A stretch of DNA of 64,000 nt from Oscillospiraceae bacterium (GCA_015065295.1 SVQN01000004.1:3047-67046); one strand, 5' to 3'; positions 11,971 through 46,341 are shown, counted from the stretch's first letter. Program-made: numbers and translations. The notes: generated by a model from the sequence alone, not told the origin.

Positions 11971-12077
11971 GGACTAAGGGCTAATGGTGAAGGGTGAATG
12001 ACTATATCAGAACGTCCGTCAGCGGACAGACATAAAGTTTCATATAGCCATTCACCATTAGTCATTAACCATTAGCC
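11971..12077. repeat. Rep-2 copy P1 (CTAAGG/GTGAATG palindrome)
   Basis: GGACTAAGGGCTAATGGTGAAGGGTGAATGACTATA...TATAGCCATTCACCATTAGTCATTAACCATTAGCC. The right arm encodes the last 4 codons and the stop of mtnN. Confidence 0.9.
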
Positions 12078-12751
12078 AGTTCAATAACTGCCTTGGCGGA
12101 GTTCTTTGCTGCCATTTTCGCAAACGCCGGGTAGTCTTCGCACGCACCGCCGTCGGCATCGTCGGAAATTGCGCGGATCACGGCGAACGGTACCTTGTTG
12201 ACGTAGCAGACCTGACCGATTGCCGCGCCTTCCATTTCACAGGCAATCGCGCCGAACGTGTCCGCAATGCGTTTTTTGGTTTCCTGATTGCCGATGAACT
12301 GGTCGCCGGTCGCAATGGTGCCGGTGACGGTGTTGATACCCATCGACTTGACGATCGCGGAGATTTTTTCCGCCAGTGCCGCGTCGGCGGGGATTTCGAC
12401 GATGTTGATGCCGGAAATGAGTCCGACGGGATCGCCGAGTGCGGAGGTGTCCATGTCATGCTGAACCATTGCGGAGGAAACCGCAACGTCGCCGACGGAC
12501 AGTTTTTTGGTGAGCGTTCCGCCGACGCCGGTGTTGATGACCGCGTCGGGGGCATATTTCACGATCATCGTCTGGGCGCAGATCGCCGCGAACACCTTGC
12601 CGATGCCGCAGACCGCCAGAACGATATCGGTAGTTCCGATTTTACCGAGGCAGTATTCCATACTGCCGCAGGTTTCGCGGACGATATCGGTCATCGCCGC
12701 TTCAATGAGTTCCGCTTCGATCTTCATCGCCGCGATAATTCCGAGTTTCAT
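12065..12751 (-). CDS. mtnN: 5'-methylthioadenosine/S-adenosylhomocysteine nucleosidase
   Basis: 228 aa: MKLGIIAAMKIEAELI, GIGKV, EMEGAAIGQVC. The stop codon lies inside the right arm of Rep-2 copy P1. Confidence 0.9.
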   Translation of the reverse strand: MKLGIIAAMKIEAELIEAAMTDIVRETCGSMEYCLGKIGTTDIVLAVCGIGKVFAAICAQTMIVKYAPDAVINTGVGGTLTKKLSVGDVAVSSAMVQHDMDTSALGDPVGLISGINIVEIPADAALAEKISAIVKSMGINTVTGTIATGDQFIGNQETKKRIADTFGAIACEMEGAAIGQVCYVNKVPFAVIRAISDDADGGACEDYPAFAKMAAKNSAKAVIELANG

Positions 12752-12770
12752 AAAAAACCTCCAGTTTTTT

Positions 12771-12878
12771 GACTAAGGACGAATGGGGAATAGTGAAGGA
12801 CTATGCCGGAACTTTATGTCGGTCAGCCTGACGGACAATTTGTCATAGTCATTCACCCTTAGTCCTTAGCCTTTAGTC
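12771..12878. repeat. Rep-2 copy P2
   Basis: GACTAAGGACGAATGGGGAATAGTGAAGGACTAT...ATAGTCATTCACCCTTAGTCCTTAGCCTTTAGTC. It contains the nadE stop, and its left end abuts the mtnN RBS. Confidence 0.9.
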
Positions 12879-14768
12879 AATTTTCATTTCCCATCCGCAG
12901 GCATCGCTGGGCATTTTCCAGTCTCCTCTGGGCGACAGTGCAACCGAACCGACCTTCGGGCCGTCCGGGAGCGCACTGCGCTTGAACTGCTGCGAGTAGA
13001 AGCGGCGGAGGAAGGTGTTCAGCCATTTCTTGATGGTTTCATCGTCGAATTCGCCCGCGAAGGCCGCTTTTGCCTTGCGGAAAATCTTGTCCGGTTCTTC
13101 GCCGTGACGGACAAAGTGGTAGAGGAAGAAGTCGTGCAGGTCGTAGGGGCCGACGATGTCTTCGGTCTTCTGCGCGATTTCGCCGTCCTTGGACGGGAGA
13201 AGTTCCGGGCTGACGGGGGTCGCCAGAACGTCGCGGAGAACGGCGGCAAGCGCGGGCTGACCGTTTGCTTCGCATTCGTCCGCATAATAAGAGACAACAT
13301 GGCGCACAAGCGTCTTTGGAACGCCGCCGTTCACGCCGTAGTTGGACATGTGGTCGCCGTTGTAGGTCGCCCAGCCGAGCGCGAGTTCGGACAGGTCGCC
13401 GGTGCCGATGACAAGACCGTTTTCGGCGTTGGCGATGTCCATAATGATCTGCGTACGTTCGCGCGCCTGCGAGTTTTCGTAGACGACGGACAGGTCGTCC
13501 GGATTGTGTCCGATGTCGCGGAAGTGGATGTCCACCGCTTCCTTGATGTCGATCGCGCGGAATTTCGTGCCGAATTCGATTGCCATAGCTTCCGCGTTGG
13601 AGCGGGTACGGCTCGTTGTGCCGAAGCAGGGGAGAGTCACGGCGGTGATGTCGGTGTGCGGACGTCCGAGAATATCGAGCGCACGGGCGGTCACGATCAG
13701 CGCGAGGGTGGAGTCAAGACCGCCGGAGAGGGCAATCACGCAGGTCTTCGCGTAAGCCGCGCGGATCCGCTTTGCCAGTCCGTGCGACTGGATTTCGAGA
13801 ATCCGCGCACACGCCGCACGTTTTTCTTCCGTACCTTCCGGAATGAACGGACTGCGCGCAATCACGCCGGTGAGGTCGGTTTCGCGGTTGTCAAGGGAGA
13901 ACGTACACCAGTAACCGTCACCGATATCTTTCGGGAATGTGTTCATCTTCATGCGGTCGTGCGCGAGATGCTGAACGTCCGCAACAGCGGTAATCAGTTT
14001 TTTGCCGCTGAACGGGGGATTTTCCGCAAGGATCGTCCCGTTCTGCGCGATCAGGCTGTGACCGGAATAGACGCAGTCGGTCGTGGATTCGTCGGAACCC
14101 GCGTTCGCGTAAACGTAAGCCGAAACGAGACGTCCGGATTCCGCTTTAACGATCGTACGGCGGTAGTCCTCCCGTCCGACGGTTTCAGGGGACGCGGCAA
14201 GGCTGACGATGACGGTCGCGCCTTTTTCGGCAAGCTGTCCGGCAGTGTCGGAATCGCCGAGCACACAGCCGACCACAAGATTGTCCTGCTCTTCACAGAC
14301 AAACATCTGGGTGTCACGGCAGAGAATCTGGTCGCCGCAGAGATTCAGCAGGGTGTACTGCCCGTCTGTAAACGGCGTGAACCAGCGGAGTTCGGAGGAA
14401 TCGCCGTAATTCGGGAGAACAGTCTTCGGCGTAACGCCGAGAATATGTCCGTCGGAGATTGCAACGGCGCAGTTATACAGTTTGCCGAGAATTTTCAAAG
14501 GTGCGCCGACAAAGGTCAGCATTTTCTTTCCGGCGGTATGATTCTTGATCTGTTCCAGCGCGGTCAACGTATTTTTAATGAGAGAATCGGTCAGGAAAAG
14601 GTCACCGCAGGTCGCGCCGGTGAGAGAAAGCTCGGGGAACGCGAGAACGTGAACGCCGGCTTCGTAAGCCTCGTCAATGAGCGCGGTGTGAGCGGGGACA
14701 TTTTTTGTCGGCGCGGCAACGAGAAGCTCCGGCTGTGCCGCCGCCAGTTTGATAAATCCGTGATACAT
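12873..14768 (-). CDS. nadE: NAD+ synthase (glutamine-hydrolysing)
   Basis: 631 aa with an N-terminal CN-hydrolase domain and a C-terminal ATP pyrophosphatase motif (SGGLDS). The stop codon is inside Rep-2 copy P2. Confidence 0.9.
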   Translation of the reverse strand: MYHGFIKLAAAQPELLVAAPTKNVPAHTALIDEAYEAGVHVLAFPELSLTGATCGDLFLTDSLIKNTLTALEQIKNHTAGKKMLTFVGAPLKILGKLYNCAVAISDGHILGVTPKTVLPNYGDSSELRWFTPFTDGQYTLLNLCGDQILCRDTQMFVCEEQDNLVVGCVLGDSDTAGQLAEKGATVIVSLAASPETVGREDYRRTIVKAESGRLVSAYVYANAGSDESTTDCVYSGHSLIAQNGTILAENPPFSGKKLITAVADVQHLAHDRMKMNTFPKDIGDGYWCTFSLDNRETDLTGVIARSPFIPEGTEEKRAACARILEIQSHGLAKRIRAAYAKTCVIALSGGLDSTLALIVTARALDILGRPHTDITAVTLPCFGTTSRTRSNAEAMAIEFGTKFRAIDIKEAVDIHFRDIGHNPDDLSVVYENSQARERTQIIMDIANAENGLVIGTGDLSELALGWATYNGDHMSNYGVNGGVPKTLVRHVVSYYADECEANGQPALAAVLRDVLATPVSPELLPSKDGEIAQKTEDIVGPYDLHDFFLYHFVRHGEEPDKIFRKAKAAFAGEFDDETIKKWLNTFLRRFYSQQFKRSALPDGPKVGSVALSPRGDWKMPSDACGWEMKID

Positions 14769-14787
14769 AAAAACCTCCGGGTTTTTT

Positions 14788-14895
14788 GACTAAGGGCTAA
14801 TGGTGAATGGTGAATGACTATGGCAAAACGTTAAGTTTTCCGGATTGACATACAATTTGGATTAGTCCTTAGTCATTCACCCTTAGTCCTTAGTT
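14788..14895. repeat. Rep-2 copy P3
   Basis: GACTAAGGGCTAATGGTGAATGGTGAATGACTAT...TAGTCCTTAGTCATTCACCCTTAGTCCTTAG. Lies between the trxB stop and the nadE RBS. Confidence 0.9.
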
Positions 14896-15832
14896 ATTTA
14901 TTGAGCCATTCTTCGGCGAGGGAAATTGCCGTTGCGCCGTCCGCACAGGCGGTGACGATCTGGCGCAGATGCTTCGTGCGTACGTCGCCTGCGGCAAATA
15001 CGCCTTCCACGGAGGTACGGCAGGTTTCGTCCGCTACGATGTAGCCCGACGGGTCAAGTTCGACCTGTTCCGCAAACAGCGCGGTGTCGGGGGTACGTCC
15101 GAATGCCGCAAAAACGGCGGAGCAGGAGAGTTCGCGCGTTTCGCCGGACATTTTGTCGGTGTAAACGAGTGCGGATACCTTGCCGCCTTCGCCCCTGATT
15201 TCCGAAATGAGCGCGTTCTTGACAAATTCGATGTTTTCCTTCGCTTCCGCACGCTTGACGGAATGCGCCGCTGCACGGAATGCGTCCCGGCGATGGACGA
15301 GATAGACTTTTTCGCAGATGTTCGAGAGATACAGCGCATCTTCAAATGCCGTGTCGCCGCCGCCCGCCACAACGACGGTCTTTCCCTTGAAGAACATACC
15401 GTCGCAGGTCGCGCAGTAGGAAACACCGCGTCCTTCGTATTCGAGTTCGCCGGGGATGCCGAGCTTGCGCGGGGACGCACCGGTCGCAAGAACCACCGCG
15501 CGCGCCGCAACAACGCTGTCGTCGCCGGAGTCAATGTCCGCACCGTCCACGGCAATGTATTTCGTATCGCCGGACAGACGGACGGCGGTGACTTCGCCGA
15601 ACATGGATTCCGCACCGAAGCGTTCCGCGCCTTCCATCATTTTTTCGGCAAGCTCAAACCCGCTGACCGGGCCGAATCCGGGATAGTTTTCCACATTGGA
15701 CGTGATCGCCATCTGTCCGCCGGGAGCCAGCTTTTCGATGACAACCGCAGAATATCCGGCACGTCCGGCATACAATGCGGCGGTATATCCGGCGGGACCT
15801 CCGCCGACGATTGCAATATCGTAAGTTTTCAT
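14894..15832 (-). CDS. trxB: thioredoxin-disulfide reductase
   Basis: 312 aa with GGGPAG FAD motif, CATCDG redox centre and GGGDTA NADPH motif. The stop abuts Rep-2 copy P3. Confidence 0.93.
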   Translation of the reverse strand: MKTYDIAIVGGGPAGYTAALYAGRAGYSAVVIEKLAPGGQMAITSNVENYPGFGPVSGFELAEKMMEGAERFGAESMFGEVTAVRLSGDTKYIAVDGADIDSGDDSVVAARAVVLATGASPRKLGIPGELEYEGRGVSYCATCDGMFFKGKTVVVAGGGDTAFEDALYLSNICEKVYLVHRRDAFRAAAHSVKRAEAKENIEFVKNALISEIRGEGGKVSALVYTDKMSGETRELSCSAVFAAFGRTPDTALFAEQVELDPSGYIVADETCRTSVEGVFAAGDVRTKHLRQIVTACADGATAISLAEEWLNK

Positions 15833-17074: not shown

Positions 17075-17127
17075 GAAGTTTTTTGAAAGGGGTGTGGGGA
17101 AAACTTTTTTTCAAAAAAGTTTTCCCC
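17075..17127 (-). repeat. Rep-1 copy B
   Basis: GAAGTTTTTTGAAAGGGGTGTGGGGAAAACTTTTTTTCAAAAAAGTTTTCCCC. Lies between the SBP1 stop and the kinase start. Confidence 0.9.
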
Positions 17128-17148
17128 ACGAAACAATATTTGATTCAA

Positions 17149-19655: not shown

Positions 19656-21029
19656 ATGAACAAAACCTACGATGTTATTATTGTCGGGGCAGGTCCTGGC
19701 GGGATTTATGCGGCTTACGAACTGACGAAATGCGCGCCGTCTCTCCGCGTCGGTGTGTTTGAAGCCGGACACGCGCTCGAAAAACGCCGCTGTCCCATTG
19801 ACGGCGACCGCGTGAAGTCGTGTATCCGGTGCGGAACCTGTTCGATCATGTCCGGGTTCGGCGGTGCAGGTGCGTTCTCCGACGGGAAATACAACATTAC
19901 CAACGATTTCGGCGGTACACTGTACGAACACATCGGCAAACAGCAGGCACTGAATCTCATGCGCTATGTGGACGACATCAACATGAGCCACGGCGGAGAG
20001 GGAACGAAAATGTATTCCACCGCCGGAACGAAGCTCAAGACGGAATGCCTCAAAAACAAGCTGAATCTGCTCGACGCGTCGGTGCGCCATCTCGGGACGG
20101 ACATCAACTACATCGTTCTGCAGAATCTCTACGAGGAGCTGAAGACCAAGGCGGATTTCTATTTCGATACCCCCGTGACGGCGATCGAAGCCCTCGACGA
20201 AGGCTACCGCGTGATCTGCAAAGACGGAGCGTATGAGTGCGGTAAGTGCATTATTTCCGTCGGACGGAGCGGCAGCAAATGGATGCAGACGGTCTGCAAG
20301 GCACTGGATATCCCCACCAAATCGAACCGTGTGGACATCGGCGTCCGCGTGGAACTTCCGGCGGTGATTTTCGCACACCTGACGGACGAGCTGTACGAAA
20401 GCAAGATTGTTTACCGGACGGACAAATTCGAAGACCTTGTGCGGACGTTCTGCATGAATCCGAACGGCATCGTTGTCAACGAAAATACCAACGGTATCGT
20501 CACGGTCAACGGCCACAGCTATGAGGACCCGGCGAAAAAGACGAACAATACCAACTTTGCCCTGCTCGTTGCCAAGCATTTTTCAGAACCCTTCAAGGAC
20601 AGCAACGAATACGGCGAAAGTATCGCCAGACTGTCGAATATGCTCGGCGGCGGGGTCATTGTCCAGCGGTTCGGCGACCTCATCCGGGGACGGCGCAGCA
20701 CGGAAAAGCGCATCGCGGAAGGTCTGGTCACGCCGACCCTTGCGGCAACGCCCGGCGACCTCAGCCTTGTCCTGCCGAAGCGGATTCTCGACGGCATTAT
20801 CGAAATGATCTTCGCCCTCGACAAAGTCGCGCAGGGAACGGCAAACGAGGACACACTCCTGTACGGCGTGGAAGTCAAGTTCTATAATATGGAAGCGGAC
20901 ATTGACGAAAATCTCGAAACCAAGCGGAAGGGACTGTACATCATCGGCGACGGAAGCGGCGTGACCCACTCGCTTTCGCACGCATCGGCAAGCGGCGTAT
21001 ACGTTGCAAGAAAAATAACAGAGGACTAA
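19656..21029 (+). CDS. FAD-dependent oxidoreductase (COG2509-like)
   Basis: 457 aa with DVIIVGAGPGGIYAA dinucleotide fold and a Cys-rich CPIDG...CIRCGTCS segment. The stop TAA is part of Rep-2 copy P4. Confidence 0.75.
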   Translation: MNKTYDVIIVGAGPGGIYAAYELTKCAPSLRVGVFEAGHALEKRRCPIDGDRVKSCIRCGTCSIMSGFGGAGAFSDGKYNITNDFGGTLYEHIGKQQALNLMRYVDDINMSHGGEGTKMYSTAGTKLKTECLKNKLNLLDASVRHLGTDINYIVLQNLYEELKTKADFYFDTPVTAIEALDEGYRVICKDGAYECGKCIISVGRSGSKWMQTVCKALDIPTKSNRVDIGVRVELPAVIFAHLTDELYESKIVYRTDKFEDLVRTFCMNPNGIVVNENTNGIVTVNGHSYEDPAKKTNNTNFALLVAKHFSEPFKDSNEYGESIARLSNMLGGGVIVQRFGDLIRGRRSTEKRIAEGLVTPTLAATPGDLSLVLPKRILDGIIEMIFALDKVAQGTANEDTLLYGVEVKFYNMEADIDENLETKRKGLYIIGDGSGVTHSLSHASASGVYVARKITED

Positions 21030-21129
21030 GGACGAATGGTTAAGGGTGAATGGCTAAAAGAGATTATCCGTCTGTTTGCTGACGGGGGATTCGGTATAGT
21101 CATTCACCATTCACCTTTAGCCCTTAGCT
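21024..21129. repeat. Rep-2 copy P4
   Basis: GACTAAGGACGAATGGTTAAGGGTGAATGGCTAA...TATAGTCATTCACCATTCACCTTTAGCCCTTAGC. Its first TAA is the stop of the FAD-oxidoreductase gene. Confidence 0.9.
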
Positions 21130-21146
21130 AAAAACGGAGGTTTTGT

Positions 21147-22010
21147 ATGCACTTCATCATCTGTACCGGCGATTCCCATACATGGGGACAGGGACCGGCG
21201 GGGCTGCTCGAACATTTTTCCGATCCGGGCGTTCAGGCGGGGGAACTGCGCCCGTCGCCGTTTGACGTACCGTTTTACGTCAATCTGGTGCGGGACGAAG
21301 TGAACCGGCGGACGGGTTCGTCGGTCTGCGAAGAAGAACCGCGCACCGTGATCGAAGGCGAATACCGGACGGGACAGGTCTGCGGAGCCGCACGGTTTGT
21401 CTTCCGGTTTGACGGCCACAACAATTATAAGGTGGCGACCGTCATTGACGGCGTGAGCCGCAGTCCGCTGATTCAGGCGCGGACGGACGAAACCGGCGGA
21501 CTTGTCATCACCGTCCCCGAACCGATGCACCTCTACCGCGCGGAATATTATTCCGGCGATTATGCCGTCATCAACGCGGGCGTGGGAAGCTGCACGACCC
21601 GGCGGTATCTCGAACAATTCTACGATTCGTATGTGAAGCTGTTTGACCCGTGCTGCATCGTCGCGGAGGCGCACAGCATCAACGACTGGCTGAATCACAT
21701 TCCGCCGGACGAAGTAAAGGCGAATCTGACGAACATTCTCACCGGCTGTCCGGACGCTTATCCGATCCTCATGACCGTACAGGAGATCGAAGGCCCGACT
21801 GCCGCGCCGTTTTCGGAAATCGACTATGCGGAGTACATCCGCGTCAGCCGCGAAACGGCGGAGGAACAGGGATTCGCTCTGGTGGATGCAAACCGCATCA
21901 TCGGACACGCGCATTTCTCGGACAACTGGCATCCGGACGAGGAAGGTCACGCGATCTATGCAGGAGAAATCATGAAGGCACTGGAATCCGGCGGGATTCT
22001 CGGAAAGTAA
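21147..22010 (+). CDS. SGNH/GDSL-family hydrolase
   Basis: 287 aa with block I CTGDSHTWG and block V DNWHPDEEGH. Confidence 0.75.
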   Translation: MHFIICTGDSHTWGQGPAGLLEHFSDPGVQAGELRPSPFDVPFYVNLVRDEVNRRTGSSVCEEEPRTVIEGEYRTGQVCGAARFVFRFDGHNNYKVATVIDGVSRSPLIQARTDETGGLVITVPEPMHLYRAEYYSGDYAVINAGVGSCTTRRYLEQFYDSYVKLFDPCCIVAEAHSINDWLNHIPPDEVKANLTNILTGCPDAYPILMTVQEIEGPTAAPFSEIDYAEYIRVSRETAEEQGFALVDANRIIGHAHFSDNWHPDEEGHAIYAGEIMKALESGGILGK

Positions 22011-31102: not shown

Positions 31103-31110
31103 AGTTTTTC

Positions 31111-31189: not shown

Positions 31190-32179
31190 ATGAAAGTTTT
31201 GAATGACAGAGTGATTTACACGGCCGGGGAGAACGGGTTCTGTCACAACCGGATTCCGGGGATTGTGGTCTGTGCCGACGGGACGATGCTGGTTTATTAC
31301 GAATGCCGCATGGGACGGAACGACTGGTCGGTGTCCGAAATCGGGATGAAGAAATCCGTTGACGGCGGCAAGACGTGGTCGGAGGAGGTCTATATTGCCT
31401 CCGGCGAAGGCAAAAATACTGTCAACAATCCCGTGATGGCGGTGATGGAGGATGGTAAAATCGTGTTCGTGTGGCTGGAGAATTACAAGCGGCCGTTCTG
31501 CAAGTTCAGCTATGACAAGGGCGAAACGTGGACGGAGCGCGTGGAGATCATGGACGCGTTTGAAGAATTCCGACCGGACTATGCGTGGACGGTCGCGGCG
31601 ACGGGTCCCGGTCACGGTACGGTGACGAAGGACGGGCGGATCGTGCTGACGGTCTGGCTGACCTCGAACATTACCAACATTTTCGCGCACCATCCGAGCG
31701 TTGCGGCGACGATGGTCAGCGATGACGGCGGCGAAACGTGGCACCGCGGGGACATTCTGCCGATCACGGATGTTCCCGACCCGAACGAAGCGTGCATGGC
31801 GGAAACGTCGCGCGGACTGATTATGAACATCCGGAACGTGTCGGACAGACATCGCCGGTACATTGCGGTTAGCCCGGACGGAGCGACGGGATGGCACGAT
31901 CTGCACTTTGCGGAAAATCTGCCCGACCCGATCTGCGCGGCGGGCATGACGGCGAAGGACGACGTTCTGTATTTCTCGAACTGCGTATCGGAGGAAGGGC
32001 GCGTGAACGTATCGCTGTCCCGTTCGGCGGACTTCGGGGAAACGTGGGAACGTGTGCTGCTGAACGAAAGCGGCGGCTACAGCGATGTGTGCGTGAACCC
32101 CGTGACGGGAACGGCGTTTGTGGTATACGAATCGCAGCACGAAAACGAAATCCGCGTGGCGGAAGTGGAGATTGGCTAA
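31190..32179 (+). CDS. exo-alpha-sialidase (GH33-like), no signal peptide
   Basis: 329 aa with an RIP motif (HNRIPGIVV) and Asp-boxes SVDGGKTW, SYDKGETW, SDDGGETW, SADFGETW. The stop is inside Rep-2 copy P5. Confidence 0.85.
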   Translation: MKVLNDRVIYTAGENGFCHNRIPGIVVCADGTMLVYYECRMGRNDWSVSEIGMKKSVDGGKTWSEEVYIASGEGKNTVNNPVMAVMEDGKIVFVWLENYKRPFCKFSYDKGETWTERVEIMDAFEEFRPDYAWTVAATGPGHGTVTKDGRIVLTVWLTSNITNIFAHHPSVAATMVSDDGGETWHRGDILPITDVPDPNEACMAETSRGLIMNIRNVSDRHRRYIAVSPDGATGWHDLHFAENLPDPICAAGMTAKDDVLYFSNCVSEEGRVNVSLSRSADFGETWERVLLNESGGYSDVCVNPVTGTAFVVYESQHENEIRVAEVEIG

Positions 32180-32258
32180 GAGCTAAGGACTAAGAGTGAA
32201 TGACTAAGGCTGAACCTGCCGTCTGTCAGAGGACGGGGAGTTCAGCCTTGTTTTTTTT
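32174..32258 (+). repeat. Rep-2 copy P5 (left arm + short terminator hairpin variant)
   Basis: GGCTAAGAGCTAAGGACTAAGAGTGAATGACTAAGGCTGAAC...GTTCAGCCTT followed by G and T8. Confidence 0.85.
32206..32258 (+). terminator. Terminator of the sialidase gene (inside Rep-2 P5)
   Basis: AAGGCTGAAC...(inner CCGTC/GACGG)...GTTCAGCCTT followed by G and T8. Confidence 0.8.
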
Positions 32259-35541: not shown

Positions 35542-36852
35542 ATGTTCAAAGCAAAATCCGAATTTGAAAAGAACTCGTGGCTGCTGGTTGCTTACTGCTG
35601 GCTCGCGTATGCCACCAATTACATCGGACGGAAGAATCTGTCCGTATGTCTCGCCGACATGATCGCCGAAGGAGTTACCGACAATGTCTCCGGCGGTACG
35701 ATCGGCACCTGCTTCATGCTCTGCTATGCCATCGGGCAGTTCACCAACGGCTGGCTCGGCGACCGCTTCCATCCCCGCTATATGGTCTGTACCGGGCTTC
35801 TCTGTTCCGGTCTTATGAATGTGTTTATGGGACTGAACTCCAATAACTTCCTGTTCATGATCATCTGGGCGGTCTGCGGGTTCTCCTGCTCGCTGCTCTG
35901 GTCCCCGATCATCCGCGCGGTCTCCACATGGACGACGGACGAGATCAGCCATGCGGCGGCAGCCAGCCTGTCCGCGACCATCCCGATCGGTACGATCTGC
36001 TGCTACCTCATCTGCGCGGCCGGTCTGAAGTTCTTCAGCTGGCGCGTGTCCTTCATGATGTGCGGCGCGGTGCTGATCGTCATGGCGGTCATTCTGCACA
36101 TCTGCTTCGGTACGATCAAAAATCACATGACCGAAGAAAACGCGAAGGCTCCCGTTCATCACGACAAGGCGCACCAGACTTCCGCACAGGCGAACATCAA
36201 GGTGTTCTGCGCCGGTCTGGTCTTTGCCGCTGTCGGCATTCTCTTCAACGGCATGATCAAGGACGGTCTCGACCTTTGGATCCCGACGGTTCTCGGCGAC
36301 AAGTTCATCCCGTCCTCGTCGGTTGTATCGCTGATCTGCACGATTCTTCCGCTGCTGAACATCTTCGGCGCGTATGCGGCGCGCGATGTGTTCCACCGCT
36401 TCAAAATTGACGAGCTGACGACGTGCAGCGTCATGTTTGCGGTCAGCACGATCTCTCTGGCGATCGTGACGGTGTTCATCCACATCATTCCCGCAAAAAC
36501 GGCGGAAGCGGTCATCGGTGCGGGCGATGTGATTCTGGCAATTTTCATCACGCTTCTTCTCGCGCTGTCGAGTGCATCCATGCTCGGCGCAAATACGATG
36601 CTCCTGACGTTCATCCCGCTGCACTTCGGCAAAGTCGGACGTGCGTCCACGGTAACGGGGATGCTGAACTGCTTCTCCTATGCGGCGGCAGCGGTATCGA
36701 GCATTGCGATCGGCTCTATTTCGGAAGTGTTCAGCTGGGAAGTAGTGTTCTGCGTGTTCATCGGTGCGGCGTTCGCGGGAGCGGCGGTCTGCTTCGCGGG
36801 ACACAAACAGCTCAAGCGGAAAACCGATGAGCTGGACGCGTATCATGGCTAA
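35542..36852 (+). CDS. MFS transporter
   Basis: 436 aa, ~12 TM segments, MFS loop motif GWLGDRF. The stop TAA is inside Rep-2 copy P6. Confidence 0.85.
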   Translation: MFKAKSEFEKNSWLLVAYCWLAYATNYIGRKNLSVCLADMIAEGVTDNVSGGTIGTCFMLCYAIGQFTNGWLGDRFHPRYMVCTGLLCSGLMNVFMGLNSNNFLFMIIWAVCGFSCSLLWSPIIRAVSTWTTDEISHAAAASLSATIPIGTICCYLICAAGLKFFSWRVSFMMCGAVLIVMAVILHICFGTIKNHMTEENAKAPVHHDKAHQTSAQANIKVFCAGLVFAAVGILFNGMIKDGLDLWIPTVLGDKFIPSSSVVSLICTILPLLNIFGAYAARDVFHRFKIDELTTCSVMFAVSTISLAIVTVFIHIIPAKTAEAVIGAGDVILAIFITLLLALSSASMLGANTMLLTFIPLHFGKVGRASTVTGMLNCFSYAAAAVSSIAIGSISEVFSWEVVFCVFIGAAFAGAAVCFAGHKQLKRKTDELDAYHG

Positions 36853-36931
36853 GGGCTAAGGACTAAGGGTGAATGACTGAGGCTGAATTTCCTGTCAGGC
36901 TGACAGACGGGAATTTCAGCCTTGATTTTTT
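36847..36931 (+). repeat. Rep-2 copy P6 (left arm + short terminator hairpin variant)
   Basis: GGCTAAGGGCTAAGGACTAAGGGTGAATGACTGAGGCTGAATTTCC...GGGAATTTCAGCC followed by TTGATTTTTT. Confidence 0.85.
36881..36931 (+). terminator. Terminator of the MFS gene (inside Rep-2 P6)
   Basis: GGCTGAATTTCC...GGGAATTTCAGCC (12 bp, 1 mismatch) followed by TTGATTTTTT. Confidence 0.75.
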
Positions 36932-37226: not shown

Positions 37227-37352
37227 GTAAGGGCTAAGGACGAAGGGTGAATAACTATGTCAAACTTTATGTCTGTTGGACTTCCCGAAGGGAAGGTCCG
37301 TTTGACGGGCGATTTGACTTAGTTATTCACTCTTAGTTTTTAGCTCTTAGTC
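37227..37352. repeat. Rep-2 copy P7
   Basis: GGTAAGGGCTAAGGACGAAGGGTGAATAACTATGTCAAA...TTTGACTTAGTTATTCACTCTTAGTTTTTAGCTCTTAGTC. This is the only copy not adjacent to a stop codon. Confidence 0.85.
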
Positions 37353-40216: not shown

Positions 40217-40920
40217 TGCTGCATTTACTTCTTCGGTATGAAGTCGGATTCATGGGACTGATCGGGTATTTCTGGAAAGACATCCCGCTTATCCCGAGTA
40301 TGCTTCTGGTGCTGGTGTATGTGCTGATCCCGTATCTTCTCGGCAGCATCAACACCGCGATCCTCGTTTCCAAACAGTTTTATCATGACGACATCCGCAA
40401 GTACGGCAGCGGAAATGCCGGATTCACAAATGTCATGCGTACTTACGGAAAAAAGGCCGCGATCATTACCTTTGCCGGCGATATCCTCAAAACCCTGCTT
40501 GCCATTCTGGTCGGCTGGTGTGTGTTCGGCTATCTGACCGCATACATTGCCGGATTCGCCTGTTTCCTCGGACATATTTTCCCCGTCTTCTACAATTTCA
40601 AGGGCGGCAAGGGTGTCCTCTGCATGGCGACCATCATGCTCATGCTCGACTGGCGTATTTTCTGCGCACTTCTCGTGGTGTTCGTCGGAATTGTCATGGC
40701 GACCAAGTATATTTCCGCCGGTTCGGTCATCTGCGCGATGATGTTCCCGCTTATGCTTAACCGTATGAACAATACCGGTATTTACATGATCGAATTCGTT
40801 GCCATCGCCATTGCGGTGATCGTGGTCATCAAGCACCGCGAAAACCTCAAGCGTATTTTCAACGGCACCGAAAGCAAGTTTAAAATCAAAAAGAGCAAAG
40901 AAACCGGAGAGGGCAAATGA
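40216..40920 (+). CDS. plsY: glycerol-3-phosphate acyltransferase PlsY
   Basis: GSINTAILVSK...GSGNAGFTNVMR signature. The start is uncertain (40216 overlaps the der stop; internal ATGs at 40252 and 40300 are also possible). Confidence 0.88.
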   Translation: MLHLLLRYEVGFMGLIGYFWKDIPLIPSMLLVLVYVLIPYLLGSINTAILVSKQFYHDDIRKYGSGNAGFTNVMRTYGKKAAIITFAGDILKTLLAILVGWCVFGYLTAYIAGFACFLGHIFPVFYNFKGGKGVLCMATIMLMLDWRIFCALLVVFVGIVMATKYISAGSVICAMMFPLMLNRMNNTGIYMIEFVAIAIAVIVVIKHRENLKRIFNGTESKFKIKKSKETGEGK

Positions 40921-42086
40921 GTATGGACAACAAAGAAAAACTCGCCGCTTTCGCCGGACTGACCGGAAAAAGTCTGACCTCCGGCGGACTGGTCAATGTG
41001 GTGTTCCATTCTCCCGCATCCGGCGATGCGCTCAAGGCAAAGGGAACACCGAAAACCATCGCGGGGAAAACCGTCCTCCAGATCGAAACGTCGCTCACCG
41101 AAGGACGTGTAACTCACGAAAATCTCACGGAAGGGGAGATTGCCTCCGCTCTTCCGAAGCAGTTTGAAACCTTCCGTAAGGCCGACCTCACCGATAAAAA
41201 CGGGACGGCATCGGTCATGATTTCGAAAAAAGGCGCGGTCACGCTTCTCGAAAAAGGGAAGATCGGTACGGCTGTCGAAAAACCGGCGGCCGATTCCGGC
41301 AACGACCGCGAAAAATCCCGTCTTCTGTCGGGAAATGAAGAATTTCTGAAAGCCCTGGATGTCGCCGACAAAAACGGCCGCATCCACGATAAAAAGCAGG
41401 CGAAGTTCCGCCAGATCTGCCGGTTTTCCGAGTATATCGCGGAAGCGGCGGCAAAGCTGAATCCGGAAGGAGAACTGTACGTCTGCGACCTCTGCTGCGG
41501 CAAGAGTTATCTCAGCTTTGCGGCGTACCATGTGCTGACCGCCGTTCTCGGACGGCAGGTGAAAATGTCCTGCGTTGACCTCAAGAAGAGCGTCATCGAC
41601 TACTGCGCGGACATTGCGAAGAAGTCCGGCATGGACGGAATGGAGTTCGTCTGCGGGGACATCAACGAGTTTGAGCCTCTGCGGAAGCCCGATCTGGTCA
41701 TTTCGCTCCACGCGTGCGATATTGCTACGGATATCGTGCTGAACTTTGCCGTGCGGCATCACGCGGAGGCGATCCTGTCCACGCCGTGCTGCCATCATCA
41801 GATGAACCGCGAAATGAACTGCCCCACGCTGGACTTCATCGCGGAACGTCCGGTCCTCCGTCAGAAGCTGGCGGACGCGGCAACGGATGCGCTCCGTCTC
41901 CTGATGCTCGACGCGGCCGGCTACAGGACCGACGCGACCGAGTTCATTGACCCGGAGGACACGCCGAAGAACATCATGCTCCGCGCACACCGCCGGAAAC
42001 ACTGGCGGGATGATTCCAGGGAAGCGGCGGACAAGCGCGAACGCTACCGTGCAGCGTACTTCTTCATGTACGGAAAAGAAATATGA
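40917..42086 (+). CDS. SAM-dependent methyltransferase-like protein
   Basis: 389 aa with an ATGA overlap with plsY. MTase-like core VCDLCCGKSYLSF...SLHACD. The stop overlaps the edge of Rep-2 copy P8. Confidence 0.65.
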   Translation: MSMDNKEKLAAFAGLTGKSLTSGGLVNVVFHSPASGDALKAKGTPKTIAGKTVLQIETSLTEGRVTHENLTEGEIASALPKQFETFRKADLTDKNGTASVMISKKGAVTLLEKGKIGTAVEKPAADSGNDREKSRLLSGNEEFLKALDVADKNGRIHDKKQAKFRQICRFSEYIAEAAAKLNPEGELYVCDLCCGKSYLSFAAYHVLTAVLGRQVKMSCVDLKKSVIDYCADIAKKSGMDGMEFVCGDINEFEPLRKPDLVISLHACDIATDIVLNFAVRHHAEAILSTPCCHHQMNREMNCPTLDFIAERPVLRQKLADAATDALRLLMLDAAGYRTDATEFIDPEDTPKNIMLRAHRRKHWRDDSREAADKRERYRAAYFFMYGKEI

Positions 42087-42192
42087 CTAAGGACGAATGG
42101 TGAATGGTGAAGGACTGGGGCTGAACTTTACGTCAGACGGACAGACTTGAAATTTCATATAGTCATTCACCCTTAACCATTAGTCCTTAGTC
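42085..42192. repeat. Rep-2 copy P8
   Basis: GACTAAGGACGAATGGTGAATGGTGAAGGACT...ATAGTCATTCACCCTTAACCATTAGTCCTTAGTC. Lies between the MTase and PHP genes. Confidence 0.9.
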
Positions 42193-42228
42193 GAAAAAAT
42201 ATATTTTTTTATTGAAAGGCAAACGAAT

Positions 42229-43506
42229 ATGGAAACAGCAGAACTTCTCAAAACCATATCCAGAGTCGATATCTCCGCCGATGAGCGTCTCGCCGCTCTT
42301 GCGGAACTCAAGAAAAAGATCGACGCAGGCGAAATTCCCACACCCGAACGCGGAATTTTCGTCAACAACCACATCCACACCTCGTACTCGTTCTCGCCTT
42401 ACACCCCCACTTCCGCTGTGTTCTACGCATGGAAGGCAGGACTGCGTACCGCCGGAATCATGGACCACGACAGTGTCGGCGGCACCAAGGAATTCATCAA
42501 GGCGGGCGAGATTATGAATATGCCGATCACCTGCGGGTTTGAATGCCGCGTGAACGTGGACGGTACCTCCCTCGTCGGACGCAAGATCAACAATCCCGAC
42601 CAGAATTCCTGCGTATACCTCGCTATGCACGGGATTCCGCACCAGAACATTGATCGTGCGGAAGAACTTCTCTCCGGCATCCGCGAAAAGAGAAATCTCC
42701 GCAACCGCAAGATGTGCGACAACATCAACGAGCTGGTGAAGGAAGTCGGCATCGTTCTCGACTTTGACGCGGACGTTTATCCGCTGTCCATGGCACACGA
42801 AGGCGGCAGCGTGACCGAACGTCATATCTGCTACGCGCTCACCAAGAAGATCACCGGCAAGTATCCGGATCGTGCGGACGCGTGCGATTTCCTCGAAAAG
42901 ATGACCGGCGTACCGCTCGGTAAGACCCGTGAAAAGCTGATGACCGCTCCCGAAGAATTCTACGAATACGACATTCTCGGCGTTCTCAAGGGACACCTTG
43001 TCGGCAAGTTCTACGTCAATGCGACCGACGAATGCATCAACATCCGTGAATTCACCGCATTTGCGAAGGAACTCGGCGCGATTTCCGCGTACGCTTACCT
43101 CGGCGACGTCGGCGAATCCCCCACAGGCGACAAAAAGGCACAGAAGTTCGAAGACGATTACCTCGACGAACTGTTCGGCGTACTCCGCGACTGCGGCTTC
43201 TCCGCCGTAACCTATATGCCGTCCAGAAATACGAAGGAACAGCTCCGCCGCGTCATGGACCTCTGCCACGCTAACGGTCTGTTTGAAATCTCCGGCGAAG
43301 ACATCAACTCTCCTCGCCAGTCCTTCATCTGCCAGGCACTTGCTGATCCGGCATACGCACACCTCCGCGAAGCGACCTACGCTCTCATCGGTCACGAAAA
43401 GGCAGCGACCGCCAACCTCGGCGATGCCATGTTTGCTCCGGCAAATACCGCATCCCTTGACGAAAAGATCAAGAAGTATGCAGCCATCGGCGGTTACGAA
43501 GGTTAA
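42229..43506 (+). CDS. PHP-domain metal-dependent phosphoesterase
   Basis: 425 aa with the PHP N-terminal His motif NNHIHTSYSFSPY. Confidence 0.7.
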   Translation: METAELLKTISRVDISADERLAALAELKKKIDAGEIPTPERGIFVNNHIHTSYSFSPYTPTSAVFYAWKAGLRTAGIMDHDSVGGTKEFIKAGEIMNMPITCGFECRVNVDGTSLVGRKINNPDQNSCVYLAMHGIPHQNIDRAEELLSGIREKRNLRNRKMCDNINELVKEVGIVLDFDADVYPLSMAHEGGSVTERHICYALTKKITGKYPDRADACDFLEKMTGVPLGKTREKLMTAPEEFYEYDILGVLKGHLVGKFYVNATDECINIREFTAFAKELGAISAYAYLGDVGESPTGDKKAQKFEDDYLDELFGVLRDCGFSAVTYMPSRNTKEQLRRVMDLCHANGLFEISGEDINSPRQSFICQALADPAYAHLREATYALIGHEKAATANLGDAMFAPANTASLDEKIKKYAAIGGYEG

Positions 43507-43549
43507 TTTCAGTTCCCAATTTTACATTATATAAAGGAGATCAGTCATC

Positions 43550-45499
43550 ATGAGCATCGAAACTCTTGTTGAATTTTCCAATCGTTACGGTAAAAATGCG
43601 GCGTTCGTTCTTGCGGGCGGCGGCAATACCTCCTATAAGAACGACGAATATCTCTACATCAAGGGAAGCGGTACCTCCCTTGCAACCATCACCGAAGCTG
43701 GCTTCGTCAAGATGGAACGCGCGAGACTTGCGAAAATCTGGGAAAACCAGTACTCCGCAGACACCGCCACCCGTGAAGCAGAAGTTCTCCGCGACCTGAT
43801 GGCATCCAAGGCAATCGGCGAAGAAGCAAAGCGTCCGTCCGTCGAAACCCTTCTGCATGATCTGTTCCCGCAGACCTACATCCTCCACGTTCATCCGTCC
43901 TCCGTCAACGCAGTGACCTGCTGCGCGGGTGCGGAAGCGAAGGTAAAGGAACTCTTCCCGGAAGCCGTATGGGTTGACGAATGCGAACCCGGCTATATCC
44001 TCGCGGCAAACTGCCGTCAGAAGCTCCTCGCATATACTGAAGCGACCGGCAAGGCGGCTAACGTTGTCTTCCTCCAGAACCACGGCATCTTCTTCGCGGC
44101 AGACTCCTCCGAAGAACTCGACGTTGTTGTTGCTTCCGTGATGGACAAGATCGCGGCTCTCCTCACCGTAAAGCCCGACTTCTCCGAATGCGAAACCGAT
44201 ACCGCAGCGGCTGCAAAGATCGCTCCCGTTCTCCGTATGACCTACGATGCAAACGGCGACGCAGTCGTTGTCTTCACCTGCAACAAGGAAATCATGAAGT
44301 ACGCGGCATCTGCGGAAGCATTTACAACCCTCCGCGAACCGCTGTCCCCCGACCACATCGTATACTGCAAGGCAGAACCCCTCTTCATCGAAGACTTTAC
44401 CGTTGCCGGCATTCAGGCGGCGTTCGCTGAACTTACCGCTCGCCGCGGCTTCCAGCCGAAGGTTGTTTTCGCCAAGGGCATCGGTATGTTCACCATCGGC
44501 AAGACCGTGAAGGAAGCGAAGACCGCTGCTGCTGTATGGCAGGATGCAATGACGATCACCACGCTGGCTGAAAACTTCGGCGGCGTACGCCACATGGCTC
44601 CCGCGATGGTTGACTTCATCGTAAACTGGGAAGTTGAAAGCTACCGCGCGAAGGTAAGCCTTGCAGGCGGTTCCGCGAAGGCTCTCGCAGGCAAGATTGC
44701 AATTGTCACCGGCAGCGCACAGGGCTTCGGTGCGGGCATTGCGAAGTACCTCGCAAGCGAAGGCGCATCCGTTGTGATCGCCGACATGAATATCGCCGGT
44801 GCGGAAAAGACCGCAGCGGAAATCACGGAAGAAACCGGCGCGGCTACCCTTGCGGTTGCGGCAAACGTATCCGACGAAGACAGCGTCCGTGCGATGATCG
44901 AAAAGACCGTTCTCACATTCGGCGGTCTCGACGTATTTGTCAATAATGCGGGCATCGTCCGTGCAGGTTCTCTCGAAGAAATGACCAAGTCGAACTTCGA
45001 ACTCGTTGCGGCTGTCAACTACACCGCATACTTCCTCTGCGCGAAGTACGCATCTGCTGTTATGAAGCTCGAACGCGCGGCTTCTCCGGAATACATGACC
45101 GACATCGTGGAAATCAACTCCAAGTCCGGTCTGTCCGGCTCCAACAAGAACTTTGCATACGCAGGCTCCAAGTTCGGCGGCATCGGTCTGACCCAGTCCT
45201 TCGCCATGGAACTGGCTCCTTACGGCATCAAGGTCAACGCTGTCTGCCCGGGCAACTTCCTGAACGGTCCCCTGTGGTCCGATCCGGAAAAGGGTCTGTT
45301 CGTACAGTACCTGAACGCAGGCAAGGTTCCCGGCGCGAAGACCGTGGAAGACGTAAAGAAGTTCTACGAATCCAAGGTTCCGCTCGGACGCGGCTGTGAA
45401 ATCGAAGACGTAGCGAAGGCCGTTCTCTACATCATCGACCAGAAGTACGAAACCGGTCAGGCAGTCCCTGTCACCGGCGGTCAGGAAATGCTCAAGTAA
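43550..45499 (+). CDS. bifunctional class-II aldolase / short-chain dehydrogenase (RhaD-like fusion)
   Basis: 649 aa with an N-terminal aldolase/adducin-like half. The C-terminal SDR half has TGSAQGFG (TGxxxGxG) and YAGSKFG (YxxxK). Confidence 0.8.
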   Translation: MSIETLVEFSNRYGKNAAFVLAGGGNTSYKNDEYLYIKGSGTSLATITEAGFVKMERARLAKIWENQYSADTATREAEVLRDLMASKAIGEEAKRPSVETLLHDLFPQTYILHVHPSSVNAVTCCAGAEAKVKELFPEAVWVDECEPGYILAANCRQKLLAYTEATGKAANVVFLQNHGIFFAADSSEELDVVVASVMDKIAALLTVKPDFSECETDTAAAAKIAPVLRMTYDANGDAVVVFTCNKEIMKYAASAEAFTTLREPLSPDHIVYCKAEPLFIEDFTVAGIQAAFAELTARRGFQPKVVFAKGIGMFTIGKTVKEAKTAAAVWQDAMTITTLAENFGGVRHMAPAMVDFIVNWEVESYRAKVSLAGGSAKALAGKIAIVTGSAQGFGAGIAKYLASEGASVVIADMNIAGAEKTAAEITEETGAATLAVAANVSDEDSVRAMIEKTVLTFGGLDVFVNNAGIVRAGSLEEMTKSNFELVAAVNYTAYFLCAKYASAVMKLERAASPEYMTDIVEINSKSGLSGSNKNFAYAGSKFGGIGLTQSFAMELAPYGIKVNAVCPGNFLNGPLWSDPEKGLFVQYLNAGKVPGAKTVEDVKKFYESKVPLGRGCEIEDVAKAVLYIIDQKYETGQAVPVTGGQEMLK

Positions 45500-45515
45500 T
45501 TGATTATAGTTTTTC

Positions 45516-45575
45516 GGGGGAAACCTTTTTGAGGAAAAGGTTTCCCCCGAACCCCTTTCCAAAACCTTTTTGAAC
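45516..45575 (+). repeat. Rep-1 copy F
   Basis: GGGGGAAACCTTTTTGAGGAAAAGGTTTCCCCC-GAA-CCCCTTTCCAAAACCTTTTTGAAC. Starts 16 nt after the aldolase/SDR stop. Confidence 0.9.
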
Positions 45576-45642
45576 TGGAAAAGGAATGGATTGGGTACAG
45601 TTCTTATAGTTGGGGTGAGACTGATAGTTTGGCTCACGGTGG

Positions 45643-45669
45643 AGAACGGTTTGGAGCCGTTCTTTTTTT
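45643..45669 (+). terminator. Terminator downstream of aldolase/SDR gene and Rep-1 F
   Basis: GAACGG-TTTGGAG-CCGTTC followed by T7. Confidence 0.7.
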
Positions 45670-45732
45670 CATACGCTTCCGCTATGGTGAAACGCTCTAA
45701 ATTTCGATTTGGTTAATTGTCCACAATGTTCA

Positions 45733-45761
45733 TTGACATTTATCGTTATTTGTAGTATAAT
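45733..45761 (+). promoter_or_regulatory. Putative blaI-like promoter
   Basis: TTGACA-17 nt-TATAAT. TGTA/TACA-rich sequence around -10 (TTGTAGTATAATTGTTGTATA) could be the BlaI-type operator. Confidence 0.55.
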
Positions 45762-45827
45762 TGTTGTATATGATTTGGCGTGTTCGGGATTTTTCCGGAT
45801 ATACGCCGTTTAAGGAGATTTCAAACC

Positions 45828-46226
45828 ATGAGAGGAAGAAGAAAAACTGTGAAAATATCCGAAGCGGAATGGAGCATTATGAAGGTTCTGTGGGACGGCT
45901 GCGCGCAGAGTGACCGCGGCATGACCCTCGGCGAAATTGTTGCGGCTCTTGCGGAAACCTCCAACTGGAGCAATACCACGATCCGCACGCTGATTATCCG
46001 TCTGGCGGAAAAGGACGCGGTCGATATCGACAAGACGACCGGTGTTTACAAGTACACCCCCCGCACCTCCAAGGAAGACTGCGTGAAGAGCGAAGTGGAA
46101 TCCTTTGTGGAACGTGTGTTCGACAATTCTGCCTACAAGCTGATGGCGTCTCTCGTACGCGAAGGACGTCTGACCGAAAAGGAAAAGAAGGATATTATCA
46201 ATATTTTAAACGAAATCGAAGATTAA
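45828..46226 (+). CDS. BlaI/MecI/CopY-family transcriptional repressor
   Basis: 132 aa from ATG 45828 (AAGGAG RBS). Winged-helix pattern SEAEWSIMKVLWD...TIRTLIIRLAEKDAV. Confidence 0.88.
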   Translation: MRGRRKTVKISEAEWSIMKVLWDGCAQSDRGMTLGEIVAALAETSNWSNTTIRTLIIRLAEKDAVDIDKTTGVYKYTPRTSKEDCVKSEVESFVERVFDNSAYKLMASLVREGRLTEKEKKDIINILNEIED

Positions 46227-46233
46227 GTGAATA

Positions 46234-46341
46234 GACTAAGGACTAAGGGTGAATGGTGAATGACTATGGTGAAATGTTATGGTATCCGGCTTGACGTACA
46301 ATTTGGATATAGTCCTTCACCCTTAACCATTAGCTATTAGC
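46234..46341. repeat. Rep-2 copy P9
   Basis: GACTAAGGACTAAGGGTGAATGGTGAATGACTAT...ATAGTCCTTCACCCTTAACCATTAGCTATTAGC. Lies between the blaI-like and blaR1-like genes. Confidence 0.9.

Follow-up and report, generated by a model that had tools for sequence, protein, structure and literature searches.

Why should the same long palindrome be found nine times within 64 kb of a bacterial genome, mostly at the ends of genes whose stop codons it supplies? The question is raised by a 64,000-nucleotide (nt) stretch from an Oscillospiraceae bacterium (GCA_015065295.1, SVQN01000004.1:3047-67046), referred to here as the window. A first-pass annotation described in it nine palindromes made of stop-bearing heptamers, and proposed that these are either purpose-built, frame-independent translation stops coupled to a long RNA hairpin, or miniature inverted repeat transposable elements (MITEs) that target or create gene 3′ ends. 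The repeat is interspersed and mosaic, it is gained and lost between species, it lies on gene ends and it supplies their stops. With a probability of roughly 70%, the nine loci represent a hitherto undescribed family of interspersed palindromic intergenic repeats, MITE-like in size and tolerated at gene ends, which is similar to the repetitive extragenic palindromes (REPs) and bacterial interspersed mosaic elements (BIMEs). The second of the two earlier proposals thus came close, as the copies are interspersed, are gained or lost between relatives, and supply the stop at five sites where an empty allele is available.

A search with the arm pattern GACTAAGGNCTAAKG, allowing up to two mismatches, gives 20 matches in the window against 0.28 expected, and a profile built from the copies finds exactly nine loci, P1 to P9, and nothing else in the 64 kb. 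Both searches place the copies where they had first been noticed (Table 1). Parsed in a 7-nt register, the nine loci contain 16 arms. Seven loci (P1-P4, P7-P9) have two inverted arms and form palindromes of 106-127 bp, mostly 106-109 bp, and in P5 and P6, as already described, a single arm is joined to a hairpin with 6-8 U behind it. An arm is 28-35 nt long and is made up of four to six in-phase heptamers, i.e., two or three of the form [GA][GA]CTAA[GT], one or two of the form GGTGAA[TG], and then GACTAT[GA]; the classes GRCTAAK, GGTGAAK and GACTATR follow one another in this order (CTAA units, TGAA units, CTAT). The heptamer consensus is G-R-Y-K-A-A-K. In 88 aligned units G is present at position 1 in 90% and A at positions 5 and 6 in 100%, with K at position 7; a core of A-A-K-G thus returns unchanged every 7 nt, and the three bases that separate one core from the next vary more. 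The outer flank of an arm is often a T run, and the other strand then reads as an A run after the element.

In the genus of the window the two inverted arms enclose a small conserved hairpin, ACGTC.GTC...GAC.GGACGT, in a unit of 106-109 bp, and are 73-88% complementary, which gives the copies terminal inverted repeats of the kind found in MITEs. The central loops had been sorted into classes. The loop that is particular to P3 and P9 is present, but it derives from the common CTGACGGA centre, which an orthologous copy (contig L033) makes clear. This loop had also been considered as a possible promoter. However, its TTGACA and TACAAT hexamers are adjacent, and with a spacer of 0 between them there is no sigma-70 promoter; promoter scans list none in P3 or P9. 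The centre is asymmetric and is found in both orientations relative to transcription (P2 compared with P1 and P8).

The presence of stops in all frames holds for 15 of the 16 arms, in which the last of the three frames is closed 20-34 nt from the outer end (median 23); of random positions in the window, just 0.76% close three frames within 30 nt. It does not hold for the degenerate distal arm of P2, where one frame is open. By direct reading, the opposite strand of the CTAAG units is CTTAG, so that TAG recurs at the same 7-nt period and the inverted arm carries stops for the other strand, as had been claimed. A stop is retained in 59 of 64 outer arm units (92%).

A co-directional gene precedes eight of the nine copies, and a check gene by gene shows that the stops of seven genes lie in or on the edge of an arm, which bears out the earlier count. 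The TAA of the first arm unit is the stop codon of nadE and of the FAD-oxidoreductase, sialidase and MFS genes. In mtnN the stop is the TAA of the second unit, and the gene ends CTG GCT AAT GGT TAA (LANG*); thus the last four codons are arm sequence, as first noted. The stop codons of trxB and of the methyltransferase gene consist of a T and the first two bases of the arm (T + GA in the methyltransferase). The blaI gene stops 7 nt before the P9 arm by recount, not 8 nt, within a unit-like GATTAAG. It should be noted that public gene calls of blaI start later than the 148-aa open reading frame (ORF) of the window.

On the distal side the element ends before the next start codon at the location given earlier, but the measured range is 16-36 nt and not 17-36 nt, with 16-19 nt at P2, P3, P4 and P9, and 33-36 nt at P1 and P8. 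The conserved junction described for mtnN, nadE and the SGNH/GDSL gene is indeed present at all three (P2, P3 and P4) and has the form A5-6-C-(0-2 nt)-GGAGGTTTT-ATG; a ribosome-binding site of the GGAGGTTTT type is found at only one other gene in the window. Two-armed copies are situated inside the conserved gene strings trxB-nadE-mtnN-GH127, blaI-blaR1 and methyltransferase-PHP. Other operons of the window, e.g., the pyr genes, have no element.

The position of the two-armed copies within these gene strings bears on the possibility that they are intrinsic terminators or attenuators between genes, which is highly improbable. P5 and P6 have terminator anatomy, and the two-armed copies do form long, stable hairpins. 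However, a GC-rich stem with a U-tract is found only in P5 and P6; what comes after a two-armed stem, read in the direction of transcription, is an A run or mixed sequence instead of a U run, and a terminator scan lists no two-armed copy. Almost no credence can be given to attC-type recombination sites of integron cassettes, although the copies are imperfect palindromes of attC-like size directly after ORFs, with a first 7-mer that contains CTAA and often a stop. By direct reading, the outer 7-mers are GACTAAG and CTTAGTC and not RYYYAAC and GTTRRRY, tandem heptamers are not a feature of attC sites, no integrase was found in the window, and the flanks are housekeeping genes in conserved synteny across species. 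The attC site was rejected on the misfit of the core 7-mers and on these syntenic flanks.

Orthologous gene ends with and without the element can be compared. In nadE the empty allele reads ATT GAC TGA followed by a 19-nt spacer and the filled allele ATT GAC TAA AGGCTAAGG..., with no change in protein length. The length is also the same for the radical-SAM protein (GAG TAA when empty, GAC TAA TGACTAATGG... when filled, the filled allele being that of contig L008) and for the MFS transporter (GGA TAA when empty, GGC TAA GGGCTAAGG... when filled). The FAD-oxidoreductase is longer by one residue in the filled form (...KITED*, compared with ...KITE*). The filled methyltransferase is shorter by one residue and has a replaced tail (...GKEI*, compared with ...GKYPD* in L008). 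The mtnN product is shorter by about two residues, also with a replaced tail (...ELANG*, compared with ...AVTLIW*), where the empty form comes only from relatives with approximately 63-77% nadE identity. Wherever an element-free orthologue is available (five sites), the native stop and the spacer that followed it have given way to the element, from which the stop now comes. The first arm stop lies no more than two codons from the native stop, with no native spacer between gene and arm. The distal native spacer is also gone or heavily changed, and only a GGAG core is possibly common to both alleles. Thus the native stop has been replaced by that of the element, and the C-termini are unchanged or altered by 1-2 residues.

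All five empty sites end in GRN followed by T[AG][AG], namely GACTGA, GACTGA, GAGTAA, GAATGA/GAATAG and GGATAA. The hexamer GACTGA was rejected as a specific target, as it is found at only two of the five. The background of GRNTRA among element-free window genes is 8 of 25 (32%), and the resulting p of approximately 0.003, with n=5 and a test chosen post hoc, hints weakly at a target preference for GRNTRA. Two routes to the filled gene ends can be envisaged. Insertion may have been directed to unit-like sequences at stops, or it may have occurred anywhere in the spacer and have been followed by deletion of dispensable DNA up to the first arm stop.

The species of the window is common in public metagenomes. 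In every strain contig compared (99-100% identical to the window), P1-P3 and P6-P8 are fixed, at the same spacing; strain-level polymorphism of the element at these six sites was thus rejected, and no recent insertion with clean junctions is present among the strains. P8 is also kept in a lineage that is about 93% identical (L083), and P1-P3 are found at the same sites (L033) in RGIG7288, a metagenome-assembled genome about 88% identical to the window. The orthologous copies of P1-P3 are 80%, 85% and 90% identical, compared with 69-77% at the third codon positions of the flanking genes; for P3, the 90% identity to the L033 copy compares with 72% at third codon positions of trxB. With the P1 orthologue in L033 and in a further contig, L079, mtnN ends in LANN*.

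Between species, however, presence/absence polymorphism is seen at the P2, P4, P6 and P8 sites and at the radical-SAM/der site, and P7 varies in copy number. In RGIG7288 (L008) P8 is absent, two tandem copies are present at the P7 position, and the radical-SAM gene is followed by an element, a place taken by other palindromes in the window. L079 has no P2, although it is 95% identical to the P2-bearing L033, and more distant relatives have a nadE-mtnN junction with GAC TGA, a plain spacer of 15-19 nt and no P2; the empty state is therefore ancestral. A metagenome scan based on nadE returned mostly distant relatives (41-77% aa identity), all without the element, and these were used as outgroups. 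P4 is absent in relatives with 87-92% protein identity, which have plain spacers of 32-42 nt. At the P6 site, relatives with 82-85% identity have something else, L143 a different palindrome, L142 a plain terminator and L141 an array of variant heptamers. The array, at L141:1652-1690 on the stop of an MFS orthologue (82% aa identity), reads GAATGAA GAATAAG AAATAAG AAATAAT GAATAAC and is followed by a hairpin; its RAATAAK units keep TAA at a period of 7, with a change from C to A at position 3.

Paralogous copies within the genome are 57-83% identical (mean 74%), with 79-85% identity in the arms and 61% in the centre. At this level of identity the family must be old, with no recent burst and no homogenisation. 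Concerted evolution and recent bursts were rejected as the paralogs are less alike than the orthologs.

The same arm is also found across species. The exact 22-nt arm pattern is present at 47 loci in several Clostridia genomes, these being metagenome-assembled genomes of uncultured Clostridia/Oscillospiraceae, Faecousia, and the complete genome of Chakrabartyella piscis BP5G (Lachnospiraceae). Many of the 47 loci are at contig ends, as expected of a repeat, and this suggests that the repeats break the assemblies of metagenome-derived genomes. In C. piscis an upstream gene is visible for six arms, and each of the six is situated 0-95 nt downstream of a co-directional gene. For 25 arms with a coding-like upstream ORF that is still open 30 nt before the arm, the stop is found at -28 to +10 relative to the arm start, and inside the arm in 15.

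Most of the other genomes do not have the arm in a 107-bp palindrome. Instead, two inverted arms bracket 170-450 bp, in the order arm, small UUCG-type hairpin, at least one inverted GTAG-tagged REP pair, small hairpin and arm; the outer flanks are TTTTG before GGCTAAGG and CAAAA after CCTTAGCC. The GTAG hairpin pairs of these composites are GC-rich and REPIN-like. Since arms bracket GTAG pairs elsewhere, and such a pair lies between P6 and P7 in the window, the heptamer arm is one module of a BIME-type mosaic. REPs in alternating orientation are combined with other conserved motifs in this mosaic as they are in BIMEs, with the 107-bp two-armed form itself being without a REP.

Other arrangements of the arm were seen. 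At L024:2749-2831, in C. piscis, a 41-nt unit (heptamer arm + TTTGAAAAGC) is repeated three times head-to-tail, 18 nt past a gene end, and the arms are thus in tandem and not inverted. At L001:277-520 and L010:3436-3685, in metagenome-assembled Clostridia (CAMFZO01), a composite of approximately 113 nt is in tandem and has the order arm, UUCG hairpin, GTAG REP, TTGCCGGAGGCAA hairpin. At least one C. piscis arm, among loci L013-L044, is in or beside a prophage region, with phage capsid, scaffold and Gp15 domains nearby. In the window, a single small GTAG hairpin, GCGTAGTTCCGCAATCGGAACTAC, is found after the radical-SAM gene at about 38795-38820.

A phage or plasmid origin was rejected: in the viral collection, 28 matches to a 15-mer are at chance level, inside coding DNA and without heptamer context, and a blastn search with one full copy against phage and plasmid collections gave nothing. 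A known RNA family was likewise rejected, as Rfam gave no match over the whole window at gathering thresholds, and in 11900-15000 the only hits were at chance level (E about 3). The literature searched contained neither of two 13-nt arm sequences (CTAAGGACTAAGG and CCTTAGTCCTTAG), and a search for literature on stop-rich, heptanucleotide or intercistronic repeats in Clostridia returned nothing specific to this family.

If the loci are interspersed repeats tolerated at gene ends, their persistence could be explained by the arm. A copy landing on or just inside a gene end would end the protein only a few codons away from the native stop, and with all-frame stops in the arm, 3′-end insertions would cost at most a few residues and so could persist. 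Where it is co-transcribed, the two-armed form may fold into an imperfect stem of 24-33 bp that starts at the stop codon and ends shortly before the next start, by 16-19 nt in P2, P3, P4 and P9 and by 33-36 nt in P1 and P8. A terminating ribosome would have to open this stem, which could lower the output of the upstream gene or make downstream initiation dependent on upstream translation; the stem could also hold up 3′ exonucleases or be cut by RNase III. In P5 and P6, which would act as terminators, the terminator stem would be set off from the stop codon by the arm, a distance of about 30 nt that contains back-up stops. The predicted RNA folds of the copies range from -30 to -65 kcal/mol, with z from -1.9 to -8.8; P1 has -48 kcal/mol (z -7.9) and P7 has -65 kcal/mol (z -8.8), and the fold of P9 is weak (z -1.9). 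The hairpin probably modulates termination, coupling or mRNA stability.

Several observations weigh against this explanation. No transposase, REP-associated tyrosine transposase (RAYT) or integrase domain is present in 50 ORFs of the window, and none was found in 44 ORFs beside the C. piscis arms, among the commonest 25 of 53 matched families. The two-armed core is without the GTAG tag that defines RAYT-mobilised REPs. The filled and empty pairs of nadE, FAD-oxidoreductase, methyltransferase and radical-SAM show no clean target-site duplication, the spacer having been replaced. No two copies are more than 83% identical, and nothing shows recent transposition. As to the hairpin, there is no covariation by RNAalifold on 14 copies (covariation term +0.36), with double changes at 3 of 25 pairs, and chimeric arms pair as well as native ones (27.8 compared with 26.2 pairs). 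The arms might be better conserved on account of a sequence-specific partner, and not of the stops or the hairpin.

What has been selected in the arms should also be considered. Arms into which no ORF reads, i.e., the distal arms and those of P7, are as intact as the proximal arms, and all 86 units have A at position 6, even the TGAA units, in which this base lies outside the stop. CsrA-type GGA motifs were discarded as a candidate, as the base after GG is A or G about equally and GGA is unconserved. The evidence for the stops or the hairpin as the selected feature is mixed. An unlikely alternative is host-selected punctuation, whereby the arm exists to stop any frame, the hairpin couples or insulates cistrons, and the element, with its A run and strong ribosome-binding site, is a functional intercistronic cassette kept by selection operon by operon. 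Such a role is consistent with the fixation among strains of the copies checked (P1-P3, P6-P8), with the retention of P1-P3 across species 88% identical, and with the higher conservation of orthologous copies relative to third codon positions. It is also consistent with the 92% of arm units that keep a stop though paralogs are only 74% identical, with the TAA kept at period 7 in the diverged L141 array, with stems that end 16-19 nt before a start, and with an A run and GGAGGTTTT that are nearly confined to element junctions; phage f1 VII/IX is a precedent. However, distal arms and P7, which face no gene, keep their stops equally well, position 6 of the TGAA units is invariant, the arms of one copy pair no better than chimeras and show no covariation or co-evolution, and the asymmetric centre is found in both orientations. 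In addition, relatives and outgroups run the same operon junctions with plain spacers of 15-42 nt, and other operons in the window do without the element. The purpose-built stop and hairpin of the first-pass annotation is thus not borne out.

The invariant A-A-K-G core can be read in another way, with the heptamers as tandem sites for a sequence-specific partner (a recombinase or HUH-type enzyme, an RNA-binding protein or an RNase), the stops as a by-product, and insertion directed to unit-like GRNTRA, which in many cases coincides with a last codon and its stop. This is distinctly unlikely. It would account for the spacing of the core at every 7 nt with more variable bases between, for an arm conserved from Oscillospiraceae to Lachnospiraceae while the interiors differ, and for the occurrence of the arm unpaired, in single-arm forms; the fit of the five empty sites to GRN + T[AG][AG] (five of five, against 8 of 25 in the background, with the post hoc p of approximately 0.003) also agrees with it. 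However, no candidate protein was found in the ORFs scanned, the sites are only five with a high background and junctions that are not clean, and a period of 7 nt misfits one face of duplex DNA, so that the partner would have to bind single strands. A decidedly doubtful extension would make the arm the recognition unit of a single-strand-specific insertion system that homes to GRNTRA and has been co-opted as operon punctuation. If so, a homing element would rewrite gene 3′ ends, and the stop, the ribosome-opened hairpin, and the A run with its ribosome-binding site would set cistron coupling in Clostridia operons.

The interspersed repeats proposed here share their location with REPs, which are found no more than 20 bp from 3′ ends, where the neighbouring ORFs are unidirectional or convergent, and whose GTAG termini often provide the stop (PMC3733652). 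Eight of the nine window copies and all six testable C. piscis arms are likewise behind co-directional genes. As with REPs and BIMEs, these are short, many-copy palindromic intergenic repeats that are near an upstream stop, supply that stop and are combined into mosaics; in other Clostridia the heptamer arms bracket GTAG REP pairs. Stop-proximal REP copies affect translation and mRNA fate, and REPs less than 16 nt from a stop are described as stalling ribosomes and lowering expression (Liang et al. 2015, as cited in PMC12306157). However, the arm is a phased 7-nt array and a REP is a GC-rich hairpin of 20-40 bp, and the stop is available in any of three frames here, compared with one TAG in GTAG REPs. 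The REP features of a 20-40-bp size and an unpaired GTAG/CGTC (Di Nocera et al. 2013) are not found in the copies, where CGTC occurs only inside the central stem. The hosts, too, are different, being Bacillota (Clostridia), which are not listed in the REP survey (PMC3733652); GTAG REPs are apparently uncatalogued for Clostridia in that survey.

Similarity to the REPIN/RAYT system consists in a long imperfect palindrome with two inverted halves around a spacer, in vertical inheritance and long persistence, and in the GTAG REP pairs that form the core of the larger composites. It differs in that no RAYT is present in the 94 ORFs scanned, the arms are not REPs, and there are no near-identical sister copies. 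The MIRUs of Mycobacterium are also intercistronic operon repeats, with ends that overlap the flanking stop and start codons; however, they are direct tandem units carrying small ORFs and are neither palindromes nor all-frame blocking.

The Correia/NEMIS elements of Neisseria and RUP of pneumococcus are alike in having 100-150 bp, inverted ends, all-frame stops and co-transcribed hairpins. Stops in all frames have been described for RUP, Correia (155-bp) and CIR elements, and the co-transcribed Correia hairpins are proposed RNase III sites (PMC2229807). In Correia/NEMIS and RUP the terminal inverted repeat is defined, the target is duplicated and a related insertion sequence exists, whereas here no duplication was seen and no parent element was seen in the loci scanned; tandem heptamer arms are unreported for those elements. 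The inverted arm pairs inspected, in approximately 580 kb of loci, span 170-450 bp of repeats, and none was seen to enclose a gene-sized interval. A precedent for the position of the hairpin is the VII/IX junction of phage f1, where a hairpin that overlaps the upstream stop makes downstream initiation dependent on upstream translation (PMC12548453). The f1 hairpin is likewise long, with the upstream stop inside it and its end a short way before the downstream start (PMC12548453), but it is a single evolved locus; here the repeat is interspersed and the ribosome-binding site is outside the stem.

A palindromic repeat that is flush with the stop codon and supplies it is already known, as is the abutment of stops by REPs. 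New are the arm of phased heptamers, the group of hosts and the evidence that gene ends are rewritten, and the advance is one of family and design, not of principle. The design is unusual in that a 7-nt period walks the stop codon through three frames on both strands. The calling of gene ends is affected, as the repeats remodel the last codons or stops of housekeeping genes (mtnN, FAD-oxidoreductase and methyltransferase), and in operons of gut Clostridia that are abundant and uncultured they take up the entire spacer between cistrons. REP/BIME-type biology, hitherto elaborated in Proteobacteria, is extended into Bacillota. The arm is carried by the cultured and completely sequenced C. piscis BP5G, which opens its effects and spread to experiment.

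The neighbours of the copies confirmed by Pfam are GH127, an MtnN-type nucleosidase, NAD synthase, a thioredoxin-reductase-type flavoprotein, an FAD-dependent protein, a GDSL hydrolase, a BNR sialidase, an MFS transporter, a DUF512 radical-SAM protein, a methyltransferase, a PHP protein and BlaI/BlaR1. Their positions relative to the copies, and those of other palindromes, are in Table 1.

Table 1. Repeat copies, distal junctions and other palindromes, in window coordinates
Feature	Position	Strand	Context
P1, two-armed palindrome	11971..12078	.	between mtnN stop (12065-12067, minus strand) and GH127 start (11938)
P2, two-armed palindrome	12771..12878	.	between nadE stop (12873-12875) and mtnN start (12751)
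P2 distal junction, AAAAAACTGGAGGTTTTTT-ATG	12749..12770	-	mtnN ribosome-binding site; identical in L033; L079 has ancestral TTACAGGAGATCGAACCAT there
P3, two-armed palindrome	14788..14895	.	between trxB stop (14894-14896) and nadE start (14768)
P3 distal junction, AAAAAACCCGGAGGTTTTT-ATG	14766..14787	-	nadE ribosome-binding site
P4, two-armed palindrome	21024..21129	.	between FAD-oxidoreductase stop (21027-21029) and GDSL start (21147)
P4 distal junction, AAAAACGGAGGTTTTGT-ATG	21130..21149	+	GDSL ribosome-binding site
P5, arm + hairpin + U8, intrinsic-terminator form	32174..32258	+	at sialidase (BNR) stop (32177-32179)
P6, arm + hairpin + U6, terminator form	36847..36931	+	at MFS stop (36850-36852)
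Inverted pair of GTAG-tagged GC-rich hairpins, REPIN-like	37046-37101 + 37134-37189	.	between P6 and P7
P7, longest two-armed copy, extra central hairpin	37227..37352	.	just upstream of radical-SAM promoter-like site (37364-37392); no gene reads in
P8, two-armed palindrome	42085..42192	.	between methyltransferase stop (42084-42086) and PHP start (42229)
P9, two-armed palindrome	46234..46342	.	between blaI (stop 46224-46226) and blaR1 start (46359)
Second palindrome family, copies	9222-9257, 9372-9405, 17094-17129, 31101-31153, 35443-35515, 38818-38851, 45513-45551		

A second palindrome family, GGGGAA(A/G)ACTTTTTT..AAAAAAGTTTTCCCC, is found at gene ends in the window, with stems that include A and T runs. 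A palindrome of this same type is present after the MFS gene in L143, where the window has P6. Two similar palindromes at 22786-22822 and 24449-24487, AAAACAGAC(A/G)CAGAG...CTCTG(T/C)GTCTGTTTT, resemble bidirectional terminators and flank an ORF at about 22.8-24.4 kb that has no Pfam match.

In the comparison of 39256-45581 with L083 (about 93% identical), third codon positions are 66% identical in plsY but 93% identical in the PHP gene. This uneven divergence suggests a recombination mosaic, which limits the comparison of rates at P8. The strain contigs L081 and L082 (99-99.7%) stop aligning at 45581, just past the palindrome at 45513-45551, which suggests that strains differ over about 45581-45780, in front of blaI. 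Some homologues of the FAD-dependent protein in databases (P0001, P0004, P0005) reach 554-633 aa by way of internal duplicated segments and are probably assembly or gene-calling artefacts.

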